A stretch of DNA of 64,000 nucleotides, taken from positions 496,001 through 560,000 of the forward strand of contig OY253682.1 of the NCBI GenBank assembly GCA_958009085.1, given 5' to 3'. The DNA comes from Protoeuglena noctilucae (taxonomy: Eukaryota). The translations under genes were made by a program, and so were the position numbers. How positions within the stretch are numbered: the first letter of the stretch is position 1; each line of letters opens with the position of its first letter. The notes beneath the pieces are model-generated. The model was not told the origin of the DNA. It did not search any database and worked only from the letters and a program-made list of their open reading frames with translations. Below, in pieces: positions 1 through 10,616 of this stretch.

Positions 1-1389
1 GGCAGTCGTGGGAGGAGACTGCGTTCGAGCTCGAGAAGCTGCAGTGCGCGGGTGAGGGCGCGGCTGCATCGGTGCGAGGGCTCGTTACGGTGCGGGGGCG
101 TTAGCGGGTTGCGAGCAACCTGGCACATGGGGAGATGGGCATGGGAGCTTGAGAGCGCGACAACCGACTCTTCAGCAAACATAACTTGTCGTTATCCCTC
201 CGCGTCTCGCGATGCCCGCAGAGGAGTGCGTTGAGTCGGAGCGTGCGTGCCAAGAGACGCGTGTTGCCCACACCTGGCGCACGTCCTTCACCCCGGCCTT
301 CACGTCGCCGCAAGTGCTCGAGACCGCGAAGTCGCACCGCGTGGCCGTGATTCGCGAGGAGGGCTCCAACGGGGACCGTGAGATGGCCGCCGTGCTTCGT
401 GCTTCGGGCCTCGAGCCATGGGACGTCCACATGTCCGACCTCCTCTCCGGCAAGGCCACCCTCGATGGCTTCTCCGGCATCGTCTTCGTCGGCGGCTTCT
501 CTTACGCCGACGTCCTCGACTCGGGTGAGGCACAGCGTTGGCACGACGACACGGAGTTGGCACGACACGGTCACCCTGCAGCTGGGGTAGCAGAGTGCAC
601 CGGGGTTGCACCACGCTCGCTGCCGGTTCCGTCGGCGCAGTGCGAACCCCTTTCCTCCTTACACCCTCTTGCAGCAAAGGGCTGGGCAGGCAGCATCCGC
701 CTGAACCCGTCCCTGGCGGCTCAGTTCGAGGCCTTCTACGCCCGCCCCGACACCTTCTCGCTCGGCGTCTGCAACGGCTGCCAGCTCATGGCCCTCCTCG
801 GCTGGGTGCCCGGCCTGGTCGCGGGCGGCCAGCGCCCCGCCGAGGTGCACCAGCCGCGGTTCGTCCACAACCGCAGCGGCCGCTTCGAGTTTCGCTTCAC
901 CCAGGTCTCCATCGACGCGTCCCCCGCCATCCACCTCCGGGGCATGGAGGGCTCCTCCCTTGGCGTCTGGCTGGCGCACGGGGAGGGGCAGGCGCTCTTC
1001 CCCGACCCTGCCGTCCTCGAGACGGTGCGCCGCGACAAGCTGGCCCCCATCCGCTACGTGGACCCGACGGGGAAGCAAACGGAGCAGTACCCCTTCAACC
1101 CCAACGGCAGCCCCGAGGGCATCGCGGCCCTCTGCAGCCCCTGCGGCCGGCACCTGGCCCTCATGCCCCACCCGGAGCGGTGCTTCCTCGGATGGCAGCT
1201 GCCCTACCTCGAGGGTACGGGCTTCTCGGTGCGTGCCGGGTTGGTGTCTCGCGCGCAGTGTCGAGAGATGAGTTTGATATCTTTCGATGCACACGCTCCG
1301 ACCCCCCCTCGCAGGCCAAGGGACCGGGGCCGTGGCTCAAGCTCTTCCAGAACATGCGCTCGTGGCTGAACGAGGTTCGCGCAGAGTAG
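1..1389 (+). CDS. purL: Phosphoribosylformylglycinamidine (FGAM) synthase, C-terminal part (glutaminase domain); 5'-partial, spliced
   Basis: Motifs VAVIREEGSNGDREM, FVGGFSYADVLDS|AKGW, FSLGVCNGCQLM (catalytic Cys) and MPHPER. GT-AG introns 52-221, 525-674 and 1229-1314; stop TAG ends at 1389. Confidence 0.95.
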
Positions 1390-1532
1390 CCGGCGCTTGC
1401 GCCGGCGTTGAATCTAGAGTAAGATGGGCGGTTAAACGGGACAGAACGCGGGCAAGGTGGTGGAAGCCCGTGTTGGGCAGAAACTGGATAGATATATGCA
1501 TCTAAAAGCGGGAAGGTAGTTATCGCAATTTC

Positions 1533-1606
1533 GGGGTTGTGGACTAGTGGCCTATGTTGTCTGCTTTGGGTGCAGAAGGTCCCGGGTTCGAATCCCGGCT
1601 ACCCCC
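1533..1606 (+). tRNA. tRNA-Pro (anticodon TGG)
   Basis: Cloverleaf: acceptor GGGGTTG/CTACCCC (one U-U pair), D-stem GACT/TGTT, anticodon stem TCTGC/GCAGA with loop TTTGGGT (TGG at 1567-1569), T-arm CCGGG-TTCGAAT-CCCGG, discriminator C. No encoded CCA. Confidence 0.95.
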
Positions 1607-1610
1607 TTTT
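1607..1610 (+). terminator. Pol III terminator (T4) of tRNA-Pro, with further T-runs to ~1668
   Basis: TTTT directly after the discriminator base, followed by a T-rich tract. Confidence 0.7.
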
Positions 1611-1674
1611 GTGTTTCTTCGGGATTTGCCGTTTTGATGACGGAAAGTTGTTTCTTTTGTTTTCTTTTATGCGC

Positions 1675-1691
1675 GGGGTGCAAGAACCCGG
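1675..1691 (+). mobile_element. Left stub of an old retroelement 3'-module relic (element C)
   Basis: GGGGTGCAAGAACCCGG is identical to 9385-9401 in the LINE 3' module. Similarity resumes at 10360-10462 once the younger insertions are removed. Confidence 0.7.
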
Positions 1692-1694
1692 CGT

Positions 1695-1789
1695 GGGGGG
1701 ACTCGGACGCGCGATGGCGCGATCCGCCGGCCGCCTCCTCGTGGCGCCCTCTGGACACCGCGCCTTTATGGCCGGTGACGAAGAGCCGG
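1695..1789 (+). ncRNA. HDV-like (double-pseudoknot) self-cleaving ribozyme
   Basis: P1 GGGGGG(1695-1700)/CCCTCT(1747-1752) with G1-U wobble. J1/2 hairpin 1704-1726. P2 CCGGCC(1727-1732)/G[A]GCCGG(1783-1789). P3 GCC/GGC with L3 TCCTCGT. P1.1 CC(1737-1738)/GG(1753-1754). P4 CACCG..CGGTG. J4/2 CGAA with catalytic C1779. Confidence 0.85.
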
Positions 1790-2480
1790 TTCACAAAAAA
1801 TGGCGCGGTGGCGCGCAGTGCGGTGGTTCGGCGGTGGTTTGGCCAAGGTGGAGGCTGGCGAGTTGGCGAGGGGGTGCGGTTGGGTGTTTTGCGTGCATTC
1901 GCGACGGCTGAGGCGGTCGCATATCCCCTGGCAGGCGCCAGGCGGCAGCACGACGCGCTCGAGTTCTGCTGGTCGGGACAAGCCGCGCCCCCGAGTCTAG
2001 GGGGGCTTTCGGGGCGCTGCGCGCTGTGTGCGTGCAGAGGGACGGCAGGCTTTCGTGACGGGGACGCAGAGCGACCGGCGGGACGCGGGGACCGCGCCGG
2101 TGGGACCAGGGTGGGGTCCATTGTTAGCATGGGGCGAAAGTGCTCTGCGCCGCGGCATGGGGGCTTGTCTCTGCTTCGTTGCTTCGATGTTGTAATAGTA
2201 CCCAGGGGCCCGCTCGCGTGGCATCCTGCGGTTGCTCGTCCCGGCAGGGGCGGCGGTTCGGCGAAGGGGCTAGGGGCGCTGGAGCCCGGGGCGGCGGCCC
2301 CATAGCCTTAGGGTGGGGGGACCTAGCGGGGGCGGGCCAAGTGCCATATGCACTGCGATAATGGAACCCCCGGGGTGCGGCAGCTCCGGGGGAAGGCGCC
2401 CCTGTCGCGCGGGCCTAGCTCGTGCGGCGAGGATCCTGATGGACCTCAGCACCCTCAGCTATTGAACTGCACATCATCAT
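1695..2480 (+). mobile_element. Non-autonomous retroelement copy A1 (~786 bp, SINE/SIDE-like): 5' HDV-like ribozyme, LINE-related 3' module, (CAT)3 tail
   Basis: 1701-2480 matches 9580-10359 with ~6 substitutions by eye. Ends in CATCATCAT (2472-2480). Flanked by CGT (1692-1694 / 2481-2483), with identity extending to CGTGGGGGGACTCGG. No credible ORF. Confidence 0.85.
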
Positions 2481-2496
2481 CGTGGGGGGACTCGGG

Positions 2497-5400
2497 GAGC
2501 GGAGGCGTCTGGAGAAGCAACTGGGACGGGCGGAGAGGAGGGCGCAGCGGACGAACGCGACGGAGGACTGGGACCGGATGCTAGACCTGCAGCGCCAGCT
2601 GACGGTGCTGGAGCAGCAGGAGGTCCAGTGGCAGAGCGAGCGGGCGAAGCACTTTCTGCGGGTCTTTGGGGCCGTGCCGAGTCGGCGGATCACGGCCCAT
2701 TTCAAGTGGCGGCGGCGGGCTGAGGGCGTCACGGACGACCTCGCGCGGGACCTGCAGACCAATATGGCCCAGCTCTACGCCCCCGCCGCGCCCCCGGCCT
2801 CCGCGGACGGCCAACATGAGCGGGCGCGCGCCAACTTCCTGCGCAACCCGCGGTCGCCGCTGTCGGAGGAGGCGAGGGCCGCTCTCGAGGCAGACGTGAC
2901 ACGGGCGGAGGCGGCTGAGGCGATACAGGGTCTACGGGGCGACAGCTGCGGTGGCGCGGACGGCATCTCCCCGGCGCTGCTCAAGGCGTGCCAGGGCACC
3001 GGGACCGAGGCGGGCGTCGAGCGGGTGGTCGCCTACTTCGTCAACAAGCTCCTCCGCGGCGAGGGGCACGACGGCCGCCTCGCGAACGCCGCCATCACGC
3101 TCATCCACAAGGGCGGCTCGCGGACGGACTGGCGGCGGTACCGCCCCATCTCCCTACTGTCCGTCCTCTACAAGGCTTCGGCCAAGGTGCTGACGGCGCG
3201 GCTGCTGCGGGTGATGCCGCAGCTCGTGCACGAGGACCAGTTGGGTTTCGTCCCCGGGCGTGACATTGGGACGGCCATCTACTCGCTGCATCTGCTCGAC
3301 GAGCTCATGCGCATCCGGCGGCAGTCTGCGTGGGCGGTGCTGGTGGACTTCGAACAGGCGTACGACACGGCCTTCCGGGGGTGGGCTGCGGACGCGATGG
3401 CGTGGGGAGGGCTCCCGCCGCGTTTTGTCAAGGCGGCGGTGGCGCTGCAGAGCGACAGCCGGGCGAGCCTGGTCCTCAACGGAGCGGCGGGGGAGCCGTT
3501 CCCGCTCAACCGGGGAGTCAAGCAGGGATGCCCCCTGAGCCCGCTCATCTTCGTGCTGGCGGTGGAGCCCCTCGCAGAGAGGCTGCGGGCGTGGGGCCAG
3601 GAGCCGGTGCAGCTGCCGGGCGGCCCGCGGTGCGACCGCGTGCTCGGCATCCGGACGACGGGCGGCAGGGCCGAGACGCTTCTGGCCTTCGCCGACGACT
3701 TCAACGTGCTGCTCCAACGGCTCGTGGGGCGCGACAGGAACCAACTCGACCCGTGGCGGGAGCTGGCCGAGGTGCTGCGGGACTTCCACCGTGTGTCCGG
3801 GCTGAAGGCGAGCCAGACCAAGACGAAGCTCTACCGACTGGGACGCATCAACAAGCGGCAGGAGGCCAAGGCCGCCGCGCAGGGCTGCCCGTGGGGGGTG
3901 GAGCCGGGGGGCGTGCGGCTGCTGGGGGCGCAGACGAGAGAGCAGGCGGCGCTGGTGTGGCCCGGGCGGCTGGGGGAGGCCCTGCGCCGCGCGGACGCGG
4001 CGTCATCGCTGGGACTGCCGATCCGGGGTCGGGCGCGCGTCGCCAACGCCTACATCACCTCGCTCGCGGGGTACCACCTGGAGATGTCCCCCGCCGCCGA
4101 CCACTCGTGCGTCGCTGACCTGCGGAGGGTCCAGGAGCGCTATGTCCTCAACGCACGATCGGCGGGGCAGGTGTGGTTCCGTGTGGGCCGCATCATGCTG
4201 ACCGCCCCGCCGGAGGAGGGGGGGCTGGGCGCCCTCCCGCTGGACGCGCACACGGCGGCGCGGCGGCTCCGGCACCTGGCGCGCGCCCTCATCACGAAGC
4301 GCGTGGGCGCTCACGGCCAGTTGGGCGGTCTCGCTGGCATCCTCACGGCGTGCCTGGAGGGGCTCGGGGCAGGCCGGCTGGGCCTGCTGCCCTTCTCACT
4401 GCCCGAGACGGACGGTTGCCACGTGGCGCAGTTGATCGAGTCCCGCCGCCTGCAGGGCAAGCTGCCGGCGCTCGAGAGCTTCTGCGACGCCATCAAGGGC
4501 CTCGGGTCCCTGCGCGCGACCCTCGGGCCCGCGCACGCGCCGCCACCTCTGGCACCCACGACGGACGAGGTCGCCCGGCAGCGCTGGACCGGCCTGGCGG
4601 CGGAGGGCCGGCTGACGCTCAACTTCGACGGGGGCTCGCGGGGCAACGGCTCCGACACGTCCACGGCTGGCGCGGGGGGCGGTACTGGCGGCCGGGGAAG
4701 GCGAGGGGGTGGAGACGCTGGAGCTCGCGGGCCCCGCCGTGTGCGGGGCCTCCAACAACCAGGCCGAGTTCGCCGCGCTTTTGGGAGGGCTACGCGCGGC
4801 AGTCGAGCTCGGCGCCACCAAGCTCCGCGTCCGGGGGGACTCCCTCCTCGTCATCCGCGCCATGGACCCGCGGGACTGCTCGGTGCTGCGGCACCCGGCG
4901 CTGGTGCCGCTGTGGACCGAGGCGCAGAGGCTCGCGGCGGGCCTCGACATCACTTGGGAGCACGTGCCACGGGAGCAGAACGCCCTGGCGGACCGCCTGT
5001 CCAACGTGGCCATGGACGGGCATGGCTGGCGGGGGGCGCGCGTGGGCGGCGGGGGCCTGGCGGGCACGGACGGCTCGCGTTTCGCCTCTTCTACGGACTT
5101 CTTCACCCCCGTCACTGGGACTACAAAGGGGGATCTACTCTGCGCGTCGCTTCTCACCCCGGGGGTCCTCTGTGCCGCCGGCGGGGGGGCTCCGGGCGCG
5201 GGGGTGGCAGGCCTGGGGGCGCCGGCGATGGAGGGGGCAGCTGGCTCTCTCCACAACGACATGGGACAGGACCAAGACGATTCGGCCTCGTCGCTCCACA
5301 GCTTCGCGACGGGCGCCCATGGGAGGGCTGGTGGGGCGTGGGTGCACGACGGCGCGTCGGGCGACGACAATTCGGATGATGGGATCGACGAGGGGGGTGC

Positions 5401-6579
5401 TGGGCGGCCGGCGGGGGGCTGCCGGCCCCTCCTTCTGCACCCGGTGGGGAGGGCGATGGCGTTACGGGGATTCGGAACTGTGGGGCATTATCTCTGCATG
5501 CGGAACCCGGCGCGGCGATGGGAGACGTGGGTCTCCTGGGCGGTCGCGCTGGGCTATGATCGGCTGCCGGGGGTGGATCGGGGGGCCTCGGCTGGGTGGT
5601 TGGGGCTTTTATGCGGGACTTGGGCCTCCTTGGGCCGGGCAACGAGTACGCCCGGCCAGACGTGGAGGGGCAATGGGACCCGTGGGACGGGCTGGCGCTC
5701 ACGGAAGGCTTCATGGAGCGCCTGCGACTCGCCTCCCCGGGCGGCGGGGAGGCCAACGACTTCTACCGGCCCATGACGGCCACCGCGCCGGGCTGGGCAC
5801 TGGACCCCGGCGTCGCCTCCAAGGCGGCGCTGGACCTGGCCTCCTACACGGTGCGGGAGGCGGCGAGGACGACGTGTGACAGGGCGGCGATCCGGCAGCG
5901 GCTGGAGCGCAAGGCGGAGGGCTGGGCGGCGGCGCTGGGGGAGGGACACGGCTTAACGGGAGAGGGATTGAGGCGCACGCTGGTGGCGCTCAACGGGCTG
6001 CCGCTGTCGGACGCCCTGCACGAGCGGCTGTGGCTGACGCTGGCGGACGGGTGGGCTACGCAGGACAGGATGTACTGGGCGGAGCGGGACGAGTGCCCGC
6101 TGCTGACGGAGGAGGGGGAGGCGTGCATGGGAAAGGACAGCGCGGCCCACGCGATCTGGGAGTGCTCGCGCGCACGGGAGGTGTGGCGCGTGGCGAGGGG
6201 CATCGTGGCGTGGGCGGGGGGGGCGCAGGGGGTGCCCCTCCGCCCGTCGGCCCTCTTCCTGCTGCGCGTGCCGGAGGGCGCGCGGTTGGGGCCGCTCACG
6301 TGGGCGGTCGTGGCGGGGGCGACCGTGCAGGTCATCTGGCGCAGGCGGCAGCAGCTGACGAAGGACGCGGGGGCGGACGCGTCCCCGGCACAGCTGTTCG
6401 CGCAGATGACGCGCATCATGGCCGAGGAGCTCGTCGCTCTGGCGGCGTACCAGGGCGGGCGGGCCCTCGCGCGCTGCACGCACCCTGACGACGCCCTCTT
6501 ACACCCAAGGGACCCGGCGAGGTCCACCTTCACCTACACTGCGCCCACATGGGCAGCCGTCGAGCCGCTACTCCCCTGA
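2497..6579 (+). pseudogene. LINE ORF2 remnant: reverse transcriptase, RNase H and CCHC zf-RVT-like domain, with two compensating frameshifts
   Basis: RT motifs YRPISLL, VDFEQAYD, RGVKQGCPLSP, FADD, SGLKASQTKT. RNase H FDGGSRGN..SNNQAE..GDS..HVPREQNALAD at ~4612-5017. Zinc finger ECPL..C..DSAAHAIWEC. Frame shifts at G6 4674-4679 and at ~5569-5585. Confidence 0.85.
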
Positions 6580-6989
6580 GGGGGCCTCTTCATTCGCAGC
6601 ACGCCATCACCCCACGACATTCGGGCCGGGGCGCCGGCGCCGGACGGGTGGCCTTCGGGCTGCTCGTTCCGGCGTCGGCGCCCCGGCCAACTGGGGCGTC
6701 CACGGCCACACTGAGCATCTACGGAAGAGCCCGTCTGCCGGCTAAAACAAGCTCCCCTGCACCCAGGATGATATGGGCTGGAGTACCGCACGGCGGCGCC
6801 ACCGGCGACCCCCTGGGCTGCCTGGCCGGAGCCGGAGCCTGAGAGGGGCCGCAGGCGGGGGGTCCACGCGATGCGCGCGCAGCCGCAGGGGCGTGGGGCG
6901 CGCTGTGGCGGCAAGGGCGGGCGCCTCACGGGGAGGGTGCCGGCGCTCGGCACACCAAGGGCTTCTGCGCACCCACGCTCCATCTTTCG

Positions 6990-7880
6990 CATGCCTCGCA
7001 GGTTCTCGGACGCACACTCGACAGCTTTACCCACACGCCTTCTCCTCACCTGCCCCGCAGCCGGCCATGCCACCCCACCCCAATCCGCATTACTCCCACA
7101 TCCACCCGACCGCATTGCTCCCACCAGGTCCCTATGCCAGCCCACTGCCTTCCTATGACACACTTTCCACCCCCCACATCCCACTGCACACGCACCCTGC
7201 CCCAGCAGCACTCACCCGCATGCCACGCCTCCCCGTCCATGCCCGCAGCTAACAGGTAGATGCCTCTTCCAACCCGACCACACACGCCGTCTAACTATCT
7301 GCACGCACCCTCGTCACTCATCTCCCGATCTCGCCGCTCAGCACCAGTCTTGCCCACTCACCGCGCATCACCACTGACATACACACGTTCACCTCTCAAC
7401 CCCCTCTCCTCTTCCACATGGACCCCCACATAAACCACCTTCCTGCTCAGCACGCATCATCTCCCACCCCCCTCCTGCCAGCCCCACGCCACACCCTTCT
7501 CACGGACCACGCCCCCACACACACCTCACCTCACACGCCCAACCAGACTCGCCCTTTTCGCAAACCCTCCTGCCCCACGCACTCCCCCCCTAGCTGCACA
7601 GGTAAGGCTCAGCACCCTCTCCTCACAGCTAGTGCCCAGGTGAGCACACGCCTCCCTCAGCGCATCACTCCCCACACACCAAGCACCACATACTGATCCA
7701 GCACAGCATCTGCACCCCCTGACCTCCCCCAATCACGCACAGACCTCCTCGCATCCTCCCACGGGCACCCTCTTTGCCAGCCGCAGGTCAGGACCCACAC
7801 CAACACTCATCCTCCGTCACGCACACCGGCACCTCTCCCTGACCGCAGACCTGGACGGACGCGCACACGCACCCTTGCCT
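6990..7880 (+). repeat. C/A-rich, G-poor low-complexity tract in the LINE 3' region
   Basis: Visible depletion of G with many CCAC/CACAC/CCCC words, unlike the G-rich flanks. Confidence 0.7.
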
Positions 7881-8618
7881 CACCCTAGCCCTTTGCAGCC
7901 ATGCATCGCAGGCCCTTGGTGTCCCACAGCCGCCAGCGCTCACCCGGGGGGCGTCTGCTCCGTCGCCGTCGTGGCGCGCCCAGCACACCCACGGTACTGC
8001 GCGTGCCGCGTGGCCTCCCCGCCCGTGGTCCTTCAGGGGCTCTGGCGCTGGTCGGGTGGGTCCGCGTGGGGGTCGCCAACGCGTCGCCTGTGCTCCAGCC
8101 AACGTGAGAGACCAGCCCCGCTGGGGGGGGCTGGCAAAGGGTGCGACGGGGGACAAACGTCGGGGCAGAGCTGGCAGTAACGGGCCGAGAGACTCAGACA
8201 GTGGCGAGAGACGTGGCGCCCGTGGGGCGGAACGCCGGGGATATCGTGGGAACACCCGGCAGTGGCGCAGAACGGACCAGGCGCCACAGGATCAGAGAGC
8301 GGCGTGGCTGCGACGAGGCGGGGAGAGTGGGAGCGCAAGCGGGGCCGGAGGGCCTGTCTTTGGGAGTCTGCTGAGGAGGCCCTGCAGGAGAGCAACGGAC
8401 GGCGTGGGGTGCTGGCGCCCGGCATGGTGGCGCTGGCGGGGGCGACCCCTCGCGCGACACACAGCAGGGCAGCGGGCTTTTGGGGGCGGGCGCGATGGCA
8501 GCGCGGCAAGAGCGAGCGGCGGCGGCGAGAGTAACACAAGGGGCATCGAATGGTGTGGGTGGGCATGGGCTGGGCGACACAGGGGTGTCGGGTGTTTGGG
8601 GGGGCGACGGGGGCGCGA

Positions 8619-8696
8619 GGCAGGCCACGGTTATCAGGGCGCGCGGGTGCGCGTGTGCGGGGGGCAGGCCTCGGTTATCAGGCGCGCGGGTGCGCG
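8619..8696 (+). repeat. Direct duplication of ~34 bp (period ~44 bp)
   Basis: GGCAGGCCACGGTTATCAGGGCGCGCGGGTGCGCG versus GGCAGGCCTCGGTTATCAGGCGCGCGGGTGCGCG. Confidence 0.8.
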
Positions 8697-8706
8697 GAGT
8701 GGGAGG

Positions 8707-8863
8707 TGGGCCAAGGTCGTCAGCGTTAAAGGGCCAGGGTCGCCACAGCGTCGGTTGAAGGTCGTCAGCGCATTTGGCCAAGGTCGTCAGCGTGATGGGC
8801 CAAGGTCGTCAGCGTGATGGGCCTAGGTCGCCAGCGTGACAGGCCAAGGTCATCTGGGCGTGT
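8707..8863 (+). repeat. Minisatellite of ~7 units of ~22 bp (consensus GGGCCAAGGTCGTCAGCGTGAT)
   Basis: Units start at ~8707, 8731, 8753, 8776, 8797, 8819 and 8841; degenerate half-units continue to ~8935. Confidence 0.85.
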
Positions 8864-9579
8864 GGGGGCGAGGAGTTGAGGGACGGGCCAGGGCCGACGG
8901 GCGCGGGAGAGGACGGGCCAAGGGCCAAGGTCGACGTGCGGGAGCGAGGAGCGGGGTAGCGTCGTGGGTCTCTGGGCACACGGCCGAGTGGGTCGTGCCG
9001 GCGCACGCACCCGGAGCGGGGCGGTCTGGGGCGGTCCATATGAGAGGCAGCCGGCCCTCAGGGGCGCAGCGTGGGCGAGCGGGGCGCCCAGGGGCAACGC
9101 TGCGCCCCCCAAGGAACGCCGTCTGCGTTCGGACCGGCCCCACCGCCCTCGCGTCCGGGCCAGCGTGGCCGGGTGGGCGAGCCAGCCGGGCCGCCTGAGG
9201 AGGATGGGAGGAGGGTAGGGAGCGGGGGATGTCATGATTGGCCGCACATAAGCTACACAGATCGTCATTAGCCTCGGCCTCACCTTTTGTAATAGACGCC
9301 CGGGGGTCTCCACGGAGGGCCCCCGCGGCTGCAACGTCCCACTCCGGGACGGCGATTCTGCCTTCGGGCGCAGCGAGGGGGCTAGGGGTGCAAGAACCCG
9401 GGGTGGGCGACCCCTTTGCCTTAGGGTGGGGCGACCTAGCGGGGGCGGGCCACGTGCCATATGCACTGCAACGATGGAAACCCCGGGGTGTCAGCTGCCC
9501 CGGGGGACGGCACTTCTGCCGCAAGGCGTGGCTCTGAGAGTCATAGCACCCCTCGACTGTTGAATCGCTCATCATCATC

Positions 9580-10359
9580 ACTCGGACGCGCGATGGCGCG
9601 ATCCGCCGGCCGCCTCCTCGTGGCGCCCTCTGGACACCGCGCCTTTATGGCCGGTGACGAAGAGCCGGTTCACAAAAAATGGCGCGGTGGCGCGCAGTGC
9701 GGTGGTTCGGCGGTGGTTTGGCCAAGGCGGAGGCTGGCGAGTTGGCGAGGGGGTGCGGTTGGGTGTTTTGCGTGCATTCGCGACGGCTGATGCGGTCGCA
9801 TATCCCCTGGCAGGCGCCAGGCGACAGCACGACGCGCTCGAGTTCTGCTGGTCGGGACAAGCCGCGCCCCCGAGTCTAGGGGGGCTTTCGGGGCGCTGCG
9901 CGCTGTGTGCGTGCAGAGGGACGGCAGGCTTTCGTGACGGGGACGCAGAGCGACCGGCGGGACGCGGGGACCGCGCCGGTGGGACCAGGGTGGGGTCCAT
10001 TGTTAGCATGGGGCGAAAGTGCTCTGCGCCGCGGCATGGGGGCTTGTCTCTGCTTCGTTGCTTCGATGTTGTAATAGTACCCAGGGGCCCGCTCGCGTGG
10101 CATCCTGCGGTTGCTCGTCCCGGCAGGGGCGGCGGTTCGGCGAAGGGGCTAGGGGCGCTGGAGCCCGGGGCGGCGGCCCCATAGCCTTAGGGTGGGGGGA
10201 CCTAGCGGGGGCGGGCCAAGTGCCATATGCACTGCGATCATGGAACCCCCGGGGTGCGGCAGCCCCGGGGGAAGGCGCCCCTGTCGCGCGGGCCTAGCTC
10301 GCGCGGCGAGGATCCTGATGGACCTCAGCACCCTCAGCTATTGAACTGCACATCATCAT
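9580..10359 (+). mobile_element. Non-autonomous retroelement copy A2; its 5' stub is stranded at 2484-2495 by the LINE insertion
   Basis: Near-identical to A1 with (CAT)3 tail at 10351-10359. Ribozyme core is retained (~9606-9668), but the P1 5' strand GGGGGG sits at 2484-2489. Confidence 0.85.
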
Positions 10360-10462
10360 CGTGAGCGGCGCTTGAGCGCAACGATGGAAAACCCAGGGCG
10401 CCAGCAGCACTGCGAGGATGGCACTTCTGCCGCAAGGCGTGGCTCTGAGAGTCACAGCACCT
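10360..10462 (+). mobile_element. Right part of the older, diverged 3'-module relic (element C)
   Basis: GCAACGATGGAAA..GGCACTTCTGCCGCAAGGCGTGGCTCTGAGAGTCACAGCACC matches 9468-9550 with mismatches and an internal deletion. Possible tail remnant CATCA at 10541-10545. Confidence 0.7.
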
Positions 10463-10616
10463 CTCCTGGCGCATCACACCAGCGAACACTGATCCCGCCT
10501 GCCGTCGTCCGTTCGCTGGTTCACAATCACTGCTACTAGTCATCAGGTATCGCTAGAAGGAACATAAGTAGAAACCCATCGTCACTAGATCACAGTCACG
10601 ACTCTACGCAAGCACC

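Follow-up and report, generated by a model that had tools for sequence, protein, structure and literature searches.

A candidate hepatitis delta virus-like self-cleaving ribozyme at the 5′ end of a non-autonomous retroelement of Protoeuglena noctilucae

The 64,000-nt stretch of the Protoeuglena noctilucae genome analyzed here (contig OY253682.1, positions 496,001–560,000 of the forward strand; "the window" below, numbered from its first base) carries at 1695–2483 a 789-nt repeated sequence, unit A, which is a non-coding, non-autonomous retroelement. Its first 95 nt (1695–1789) can be drawn as a complete nested double pseudoknot of the hepatitis delta virus (HDV) type, and it is likely, judging from the sequence, that they constitute an HDV-like self-cleaving ribozyme that forms the 5′ terminus of the element. 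A ribozyme at the 5′ end is a strategy known from the R2, RTE and L1Tc elements, of which unit A is probably a new example.

The fold and the 5′ end of unit A

The strands of the candidate lie in the order P1, J1/2, P2, P3, L3, P3′, P1′, P1.1, P4, J4/2 and P2′, and when the sequence was read and the pairs printed, every HDV helix that had originally been claimed for this segment was found in its proper place. The elements, all on the + strand and with pairs read from the sequence, are as follows.

1695–1789, +: candidate HDV-like self-cleaving ribozyme, comprising P1, the J1/2 hairpin, P2, P3/L3, P1.1, P4, and J4/2 with C1779
G1695–G1700 with C1747–U1752, +: P1
A1701 opposite G1746, +: P1 position 7, a mismatch at the inner end of P1
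1704–1712 with 1717–1726, +: J1/2 hairpin of 9 pairs, A1722 bulged
1727–1732 with 1783–1789, +: P2, A1784 bulged
1733–1735 with 1743–1745, +: P3, 3 bp
1736–1742, +: L3, UCCUCGU, including G1741
C1737/C1738 with G1754/G1753, +: P1.1, two pairs
1756–1760 with 1773–1777, +: P4, extendable by 1762–1764 with 1770–1772 if C1761 is bulged
1778–1782, +: J4/2, ACGAA, with the putative catalytic C1779 followed by purines; it aligns to the consensus CuAA/CGAA

P1 forms six of its seven pairs, and two of these are G·U (1695·1752 and 1697·1750). The original prediction was thus right about a wobble at the first pair and about the A–G mismatch at position 7 (A1701 and G1746 are unpaired), but it counted one wobble too few. 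The predicted cut lies between T1694 and G1695, directly 5′ of the first P1 nucleotide and its wobble pair G1695·U1752; a G·U pair at the cut site is conserved in the HDV-like family and agrees with the Rfam consensus. The P3-L3-P3′ stretch aligns at 13 positions to the Rfam HDV_ribozyme consensus with one L3 position deleted, and J4/2 contains CGAA, in which C1779 would be the catalytic residue. When the 95 nt are folded in isolation, P1, the J1/2 hairpin, P3 and P4 appear in the minimum free energy (MFE) structure. The G of L3 is described as important in HDV-like ribozymes (PMC3774820), and J1/2, 25 nt long with its hairpin inside, recalls the structured J1/2 helix reported as an activator of large HDV-like ribozymes (PMC4908430).

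The position of the predicted cut can be compared with the end of the element itself. The open reading frame (ORF) called through A belongs to a 90% cluster of 12 members, four of which start downstream of the junction and ribozyme while eight cover the junction. Among these eight, A sequence takes over from four different upstream flanks, in each case within the codon containing 1695/1696.

P0077 and P0074, window flank: switch within the 1695/1696 codon
P0076 and P0079, second flank: a longer G run leaves the boundary ambiguous by up to two bases
P0071, third flank: switch within the 1695/1696 codon
P0078, fourth flank: switch within the 1695/1696 codon
P0081: boundary ambiguous (G1698A, or else a short truncation)
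P0073, on the same 1-Mb contig outside the window: a (CAT)n tail of a long interspersed nuclear element (LINE) joined to a 5′-truncated A from about nt 32, with C1779T

Unrelated sequence thus precedes A in the window, at no fewer than three other loci, and at a tandem A–A junction (2483/2484), where the end of the first copy (...CATCATCATCGT) is followed directly by the start of A. A unique-flank contig of sequencing run X2 ends at 1724, that is, at 1694 + 30, which would fit a 31-mer graph that branches where the repeat starts at 1694/1695. The claim that the predicted cut site coincides with the 5′ end of a repeated element is therefore borne out, since the 1694/1695 boundary recurs behind different upstream flanks at other loci. 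A precise, recurrent 5′ end with varied upstream flanks is the signature described for ribozyme-headed retroelements (PMC6765202).

Behind its ribozyme head, unit A continues with roughly 460 nt of unique sequence; the final ∼215 nt are similar to the 3′ end of a LINE and close in (CAT)3CGT. A second copy lies downstream, interrupted by such a LINE, and the whole arrangement occupies the following positions.

1675–1694, +: left half of an older, 5′-truncated LINE-3′-UTR-like (untranslated region) fragment; 1675–1691 is identical to 9385–9401
1692–1694, +: CGT before G1695; the same triplet is present at 2481–2483 and 10361–10363
1695–2483, +: unit A copy 1, 789 nt, delimited by self-BLAST, the 3′-end alignment and a solo copy, with no Pfam match
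2484–2495, +: A copy 2 stub, its first 12 nt (GGGGGGACTCGG), which include the P1 5′ strand, directly after copy 1
2493–9579, +: 5′-truncated, frameshifted LINE of the apurinic/apyrimidinic endonuclease (APE) type, recognized with Pfam, ending in CATCATCATC
9580–10363, +: A copy 2 remainder, nt 7–789, with 6 differences in 783 positions from copy 1, none of them in the ribozyme part
10364–10480, +: right half of the older LINE-3′-UTR-like fragment; 10378–10465 is 86% identical to 9468–9554

The last ~215 nt of A align to the LINE 3′ end (85–86% identity over 139 and 88 nt by self-BLAST), and the (CAT)3 tail is common to both. The sole long ORF through A has no Pfam match, and its relatives are copies of A only. 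Nor did Rfam and ARAGORN find a tRNA, 5S or 7SL match inside A, and a TTTT run lies within it at 1887–1890; lacking a head of the RNA polymerase (Pol) III type and containing this T4 run, A is unlikely to be of Pol III origin. It also occurs alone. A 1624-nt metatranscriptome contig matches 1695–2482, with unlike sequence for 394 nt before and 442 nt after the match. Here the match ends one base early, at 2482, and the flank upstream has CGG as its last three bases, consistent with duplication of CGG at that locus. The CGT of the window is probably a 3-bp target-site duplication, and the two cases together fit a 3-bp target duplication that starts with CG, although the triplet could instead be the end of the element's own tail. 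The A/LINE stretch is multi-copy in the run of the best-matching organism, where summed contig depth, which does not measure copy number, is 224 over the unique flank and 720–4400 within the elements. The stretch is matched in 16 run rows from seven studies, marine metagenomes and metatranscriptomes among them, and a related family is present in run X13 (organism B).

Chance resemblance and decay as rival explanations

Several results weigh against a working ribozyme at 1695–1789. The first concern is how readily such a fold arises. A descriptor, written from general HDV features after the candidate had been seen, demands six P1 pairs with G1·U at the cut site, a 3-bp P3, two Cs in L3 that can pair with GG behind P1′, a P4 hairpin, C-N-R-A in J4/2, and a P2 that is 5 bp or longer and may contain a bulge. 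Run over both strands of the real 64-kb window it matches at 1695 only. However, it is tailored to the candidate, and shuffled windows contained at least one match in 54 cases of 2181, or ∼2.5% per 64-kb window (none in a first set of 120 dinucleotide shuffles, 54 in a second set of 2061). The fold alone is thus not rare enough for a large scan, and is weak evidence. At gathering score Rfam returned the tRNA described below and no ribozyme. In E-value mode over 301 bases the best match, drz-agam-1, reached 18.4 bits (cut-off 37, E 0.24), and HDV_ribozyme reached 15.7 bits (cut-off 50, E 5.8), so that the search with Infernal-type HDV models suggested in the original prediction produced matches, but only sub-threshold ones. 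Both alignments lock on the P3-L3-P3′ core and mis-place P1 because of the 25-nt J1/2; models of this kind are unable to represent pseudoknots. Three probable compact HDV-like ribozymes from metagenome contigs (L046, L085 and L077), described below, scored 32–35 bits and were also below gathering. The fold z-score of the 95 nt is −0.30 (z-scores overall were −0.30 and −0.98), and in a 176-nt context the MFE structure is a different fold; z-scores are uninformative in sequence of 70% GC, and the window as a whole is 67% G+C.

Other adverse points concern the structure and its copies. P1 has its position-7 mismatch, a defect that is uncommon in the class, and P2 forms only with a bulged A. One account connects P1 mismatches in other HDV-like ribozymes with a loss of activity in vitro (PMC3774820). 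There are no compensatory changes among the near-identical copies, and no divergent relative was found; the members of the A-ORF cluster are 89–100% identical to the window ORF at the protein level (12 members), so covariation cannot discriminate. The sole structure-relevant change in an otherwise intact copy, C1704T in P0078, keeps a U·G pair. The probable G1698A of P0081 would break P1 (a short truncation is the other possibility for this copy), and C1779T is present in the 5′-truncated copy P0073. Finally, a metatranscriptome contig spans 1694/1695 uncut, but RNA ends are not visible in contigs and DNA may have been carried over, so this contig is evidence neither way; and the uniform 5′ end of A could come from a fixed transcription start.

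Much of this would be accounted for if 1695–1789 were a chance HDV look-alike in very GC-rich sequence, with a uniform 5′ end due to transcription from a constant start site (at an internal Pol II promoter or initiator) and full-length reverse transcription. The matches in shuffled windows, the sub-threshold Rfam scores, the non-significant fold z-scores and the lack of covariation all favor this explanation, as does the choice of the candidate by eye from a very large scan. It nevertheless seems unlikely. The look-alike would have to start on the exact boundary base and on the correct strand, and to have an L3 and a J4/2 almost identical to the HDV consensus, mostly beyond what the descriptor demands (only CC in L3 and C-N-R-A in J4/2); moreover, no promoter-type head was found in A with Rfam. 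Two features raise the candidate above chance: the predicted cut site meets the element boundary to the base, and L3 and J4/2 are nearly identical to the HDV consensus.

A ribozyme that has decayed is a somewhat poorer explanation, and an improbable one. It would hold that the segment descends from a working HDV-like ribozyme, that its present copies cleave poorly, and that the family spreads otherwise or not at all. The mismatch at P1 position 7 and the bulged P2 are visible signs that could be read in this way, mismatches in P1 have been tied to lost activity elsewhere (PMC3774820), and single copies carry the probable G1698A and the C1779T. Against decay, the mismatch lies at the inner end of P1, outside the first six pairs; the family is multi-copy with copies 89–100% identical, which indicates recent activity; and the ribozyme part is identical in both window copies (A1 and A2) and in three contigs.

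The LINE, the second copy of A and the history of the locus

Self-BLAST of the window pairs 1701–2484 with 9580–10363 as 784-bp direct repeats, 99.2% identical and 7879 bp apart. The sequence between them encodes a reverse transcriptase (RT) at ∼3130–3837 (RVT_1, 3.2e-24 by Pfam) and an RNase H at ∼4748–5008 (RVT_3, 8e-11), which lie in shifted frames. The best outside matches of the RT are APE-type LINEs, 23–35% identical. A full-length ORF2 in the LINE's own 90% cluster (P0093, 1711 residues) has its APE at residues 32–262, RT at 563–798 and RNase H at 1068–1188, whereas the window LINE begins at about ORF2 residue 347. Contigs of two other runs extend upstream of 2493 with ORF2 sequence that is missing in the window, and there are one-base indels in the window LINE relative to other copies. 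From the late ORF2 start, the longer copies elsewhere and these indels it follows that the LINE body is 5′-truncated and frameshifted. About 3 kb between the end of ORF2 and the 3′ module (6580–9340) has no Pfam domain but contains an open frame at 7843–8817 (324 aa), and contig depth is higher there than over the RT part; possible interpretations of this section are a second ORF, an extended 3′ UTR and additional nested repeats.

The letters at the ends of the LINE suggest how the arrangement arose. The remainder of copy 2 opens with ACTCGG right behind CATCATCATC, without a contiguous GGGGGG P1 strand, and this ACTCGG (9580–9585) repeats 2490–2495. It appears to be a 6-bp duplication made by insertion of the LINE, with the CGG at 2493–2495 representing microhomology with the target. 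Two A copies would thus first have stood head to tail, and a 5′-truncated LINE would then have inserted after nt 12 of the second with a 6-bp duplication. The composite could also have originated by template jumping from A RNA to LINE RNA and back to A RNA, which needs internal re-entry at A nt 12; the LINE insertion, which explains the same letters, is simpler. The original prediction had taken both copies to be full length at their 5′ ends, but copy 2 is split after nt 12 and has no usable P1 as it stands. The LINE places 7.1 kb between the P1 strand of copy 2 and its core, far beyond the range of 23 to about 700 nt given for R2 (PMC3774820), so the ribozyme of copy 2 is probably dead, inactivated by the insertion.

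It had also been implied that a single long element runs from one A copy to the other, and this does not hold, as A is a separate unit that also occurs solo and the RT body is a truncated LINE inserted in the second A. Such an element (1695–10360, with terminal A repeats, a CGT duplication, and the ribozyme heading an autonomous RT element) is hardly credible, for although near-identical direct repeats flank the RT ORF and CGT stands at both outer ends, the RT is of the LINE type, the N-terminal APE of full-length copies is missing in the window, ORF2 sequence extends upstream of 2493 in other copies, Pfam detected no integrase, tyrosine recombinase or GIY-YIG domain among the window proteins, A occurs alone with unlike flanks, and a LINE that inserted into an A–A tandem would be expected to leave just such a 12-nt A start (2484–2495) and ACTCGG duplication. 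Readings of the 784-bp repeats as a long terminal repeat, DIRS or Penelope-type element were rejected on account of the LINE-type RT, the solo A and the letters of the LINE insertion.

The A-LINE-A composite itself sits within the older LINE-3′-UTR-like fragment, which makes three nesting layers at one spot, and a contig joint 1695→2293 and a loose end before 1675 also lead into LINE-3′-UTR-type sequence. The family may have a preference for inserting into its own sequences. Two independent junctions of a LINE tail with A, the one in the window and that of P0073, lie no farther than ∼32 nt from the start of A. LINEs may insert preferentially into the folded ribozyme, or the RT may stall or switch template there.

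Upstream of this locus lies one further RNA gene:

1533–1606, +: tRNA-Pro (anticodon TGG), Rfam tRNA 54.7 bits and ARAGORN, 88 nt upstream of A

There are several T4 runs between this gene and A, which argues against Pol III read-through into A. Another contig of run X2 joins 1598 to 1696, and might represent another A copy beside a tRNA gene elsewhere, but its shorter side is 22 letters and too short to interpret. Farther upstream, an ORF of 385 aa at 212–1369 has a GATase_5 match (4.4e-90 by Pfam) and its product resembles the glutaminase portion of a formylglycinamidine-ribonucleotide (FGAM) synthase; its nearest clusters in the protein atlas are mostly bacterial.

Relation to known ribozyme-headed elements

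The closest parallels to unit A are found among short partners of autonomous elements. R2 SIDEs are described as short, internally deleted, non-autonomous derivatives of R2, which, like R2 itself, have an HDV-type ribozyme at the 5′ end that releases the element from a co-transcript; what the non-autonomous derivative retains is this ribozyme and the 3′ end on which target-primed reverse transcription depends (PMC3414825, PMC3774820). Unit A has several attributes of an R2 SIDE or NARTc-type element, namely no protein of its own, a 3′ end shared with a LINE, and a recurrent 5′ end with varied flanks. As in A, the J1/2 of R2 ribozymes is variable and can be long. On the other hand, R2 is site-specific in 28S rDNA, has a restriction-like endonuclease and often takes its P1 strand from the 28S gene, whereas the partner LINE of A is of the APE type, the insertion flanks are diverse and the P1 strand is A's own. 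In the sequences at hand the ribozyme is seen only on the non-autonomous unit, and the LINE of the window is 5′-truncated; when contigs of the P0071 cluster were compared by size with those bearing a long ORF2 none were equal, a weak hint against a LINE that shares the ribozyme of A.

The L1Tc/NARTc pair of Trypanosoma cruzi is similar in that its autonomous partner has APE, RT and RNase H, and in that both the LINE and its non-autonomous partner begin with an HDV-like ribozyme (L1TcRz, within Pr77), according to published descriptions (PMC3383444, PMC3185411, PMC6765202). It differs in several ways. The same 77 nt are also an internal promoter in L1Tc, the candidate here is 95 nt with a structured J1/2, and L1Tc has no sequence relationship to the window LINE (whose best outside RT matches are the 23–35% noted above).

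Among individual ribozymes, drz-Agam-1 of Anopheles is the best Rfam match of the candidate, though at half the gathering threshold and with P1 mis-placed in the alignment owing to the J1/2 insert. In drz-Agam-2, also from Anopheles, a structured J1/2 (P1.2) is reported to speed cleavage (PMC4908430), and may be compared with the 9-bp hairpin at 1704–1726. The genomic HDV ribozyme (RF00094) has the same P3-L3-P3′ core apart from one L3 base, the same CGAA in J4/2, a G·U pair at the cut site and a two-pair P1.1, but the candidate departs from it in its 25-nt J1/2 with a hairpin, P1 position-7 mismatch and bulged P2, its score is 15.7 bits against a cut-off of 50, and it is part of a genomic retroelement rather than a circular RNA replicon. 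The hammerhead-bearing SINE-like (short interspersed nuclear element) elements and retrozymes are likewise described as non-coding, ribozyme-bearing, often tandem, and reliant on an autonomous retroelement (PMC7761336, PMC6765202); their ribozyme is of another class, and only one tandem junction was seen for A.

Relatives of A were sought more widely. A metagenome scan with the core pattern gave at least 119 loci, and blastn of 121 loci (including two from viral contigs) against A and the LINE found none related among the matches listed; P1 and P2 were both present in six of the 120 core-pattern matches listed. Searches of viral contigs and genome contigs recovered nothing related to A, and a protein search for divergent relatives of the A-ORF recovered its own cluster and P0097 only, the latter being near-identical DNA with a frameshift that starts downstream of the ribozyme. 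The scan did encounter three metagenome contigs with full P1, P2 and P4 pairing, L046 477–550(−), L085 292–365(−) and L077 104–176(−), whose scores given above are for RF00094 and RF02682; these are probably unannotated HDV-like ribozymes unrelated to A. The open-access literature, loosely searched in part, yielded no report of HDV-like ribozymes in retroelements of algae or marine protists.

If the candidate is active, unit A could propagate as follows. It would be transcribed within a host transcript that runs through it, and the ribozyme would fold and cut 5′ of G1695. The released RNA would keep the entire ribozyme and the 3′ module shared with the LINE, including its (CAU)3 tail, and the APE-RT-RNase H machinery of the LINE would copy it by target-primed reverse transcription, in keeping with the established biology of LINEs and SINEs. 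The 5′ strand of P1 is A's own first six bases, downstream of the cut; the whole ribozyme thus lies downstream of the cut, and every full-length copy would regenerate it whatever the flank. This regeneration would explain why the 5′ ends of A are identical.

For the tandem A–A arrangement a further role can be imagined, though it must be considered doubtful: the ribozyme of the downstream unit could make the 3′ end of the upstream one by cutting after (CAU)3CGU at 2483/2484, and so yield 789-nt unit RNAs, which would have 5′-OH and 2′,3′-cyclic phosphate ends. If so, RNAs of this kind would be ideally suited to target-primed reverse transcription with no need of polyadenylation, a cellular ligase could circularize them, and A would be the HDV-ribozyme counterpart, in a marine unicellular eukaryote, of the hammerhead retrozymes. 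A variant tandem junction is present in a contig of run X2, which follows A to 2438, continues with 19 letters (like A's first 9 bases, then others) and resumes at 1695, and so contains a partial duplication of the 5′ end.

What is known of the mechanism of HDV-like ribozymes is unchanged by these observations. Self-release from a host transcript is documented, in the sources cited, mainly for metazoan and trypanosomatid non-LTR elements (PMC6765202, PMC7761336, PMC4035085). Unit A offers a compact, testable example with a natural 9-bp clamp in J1/2, and its locus is a natural experiment in which the LINE has separated the P1 strand of copy 2 from its catalytic core. If the ribozyme cleaves, unit A would extend the strategy of host-transcript hitch-hiking and self-release to a non-coding LINE partner in a GC-rich marine eukaryote.

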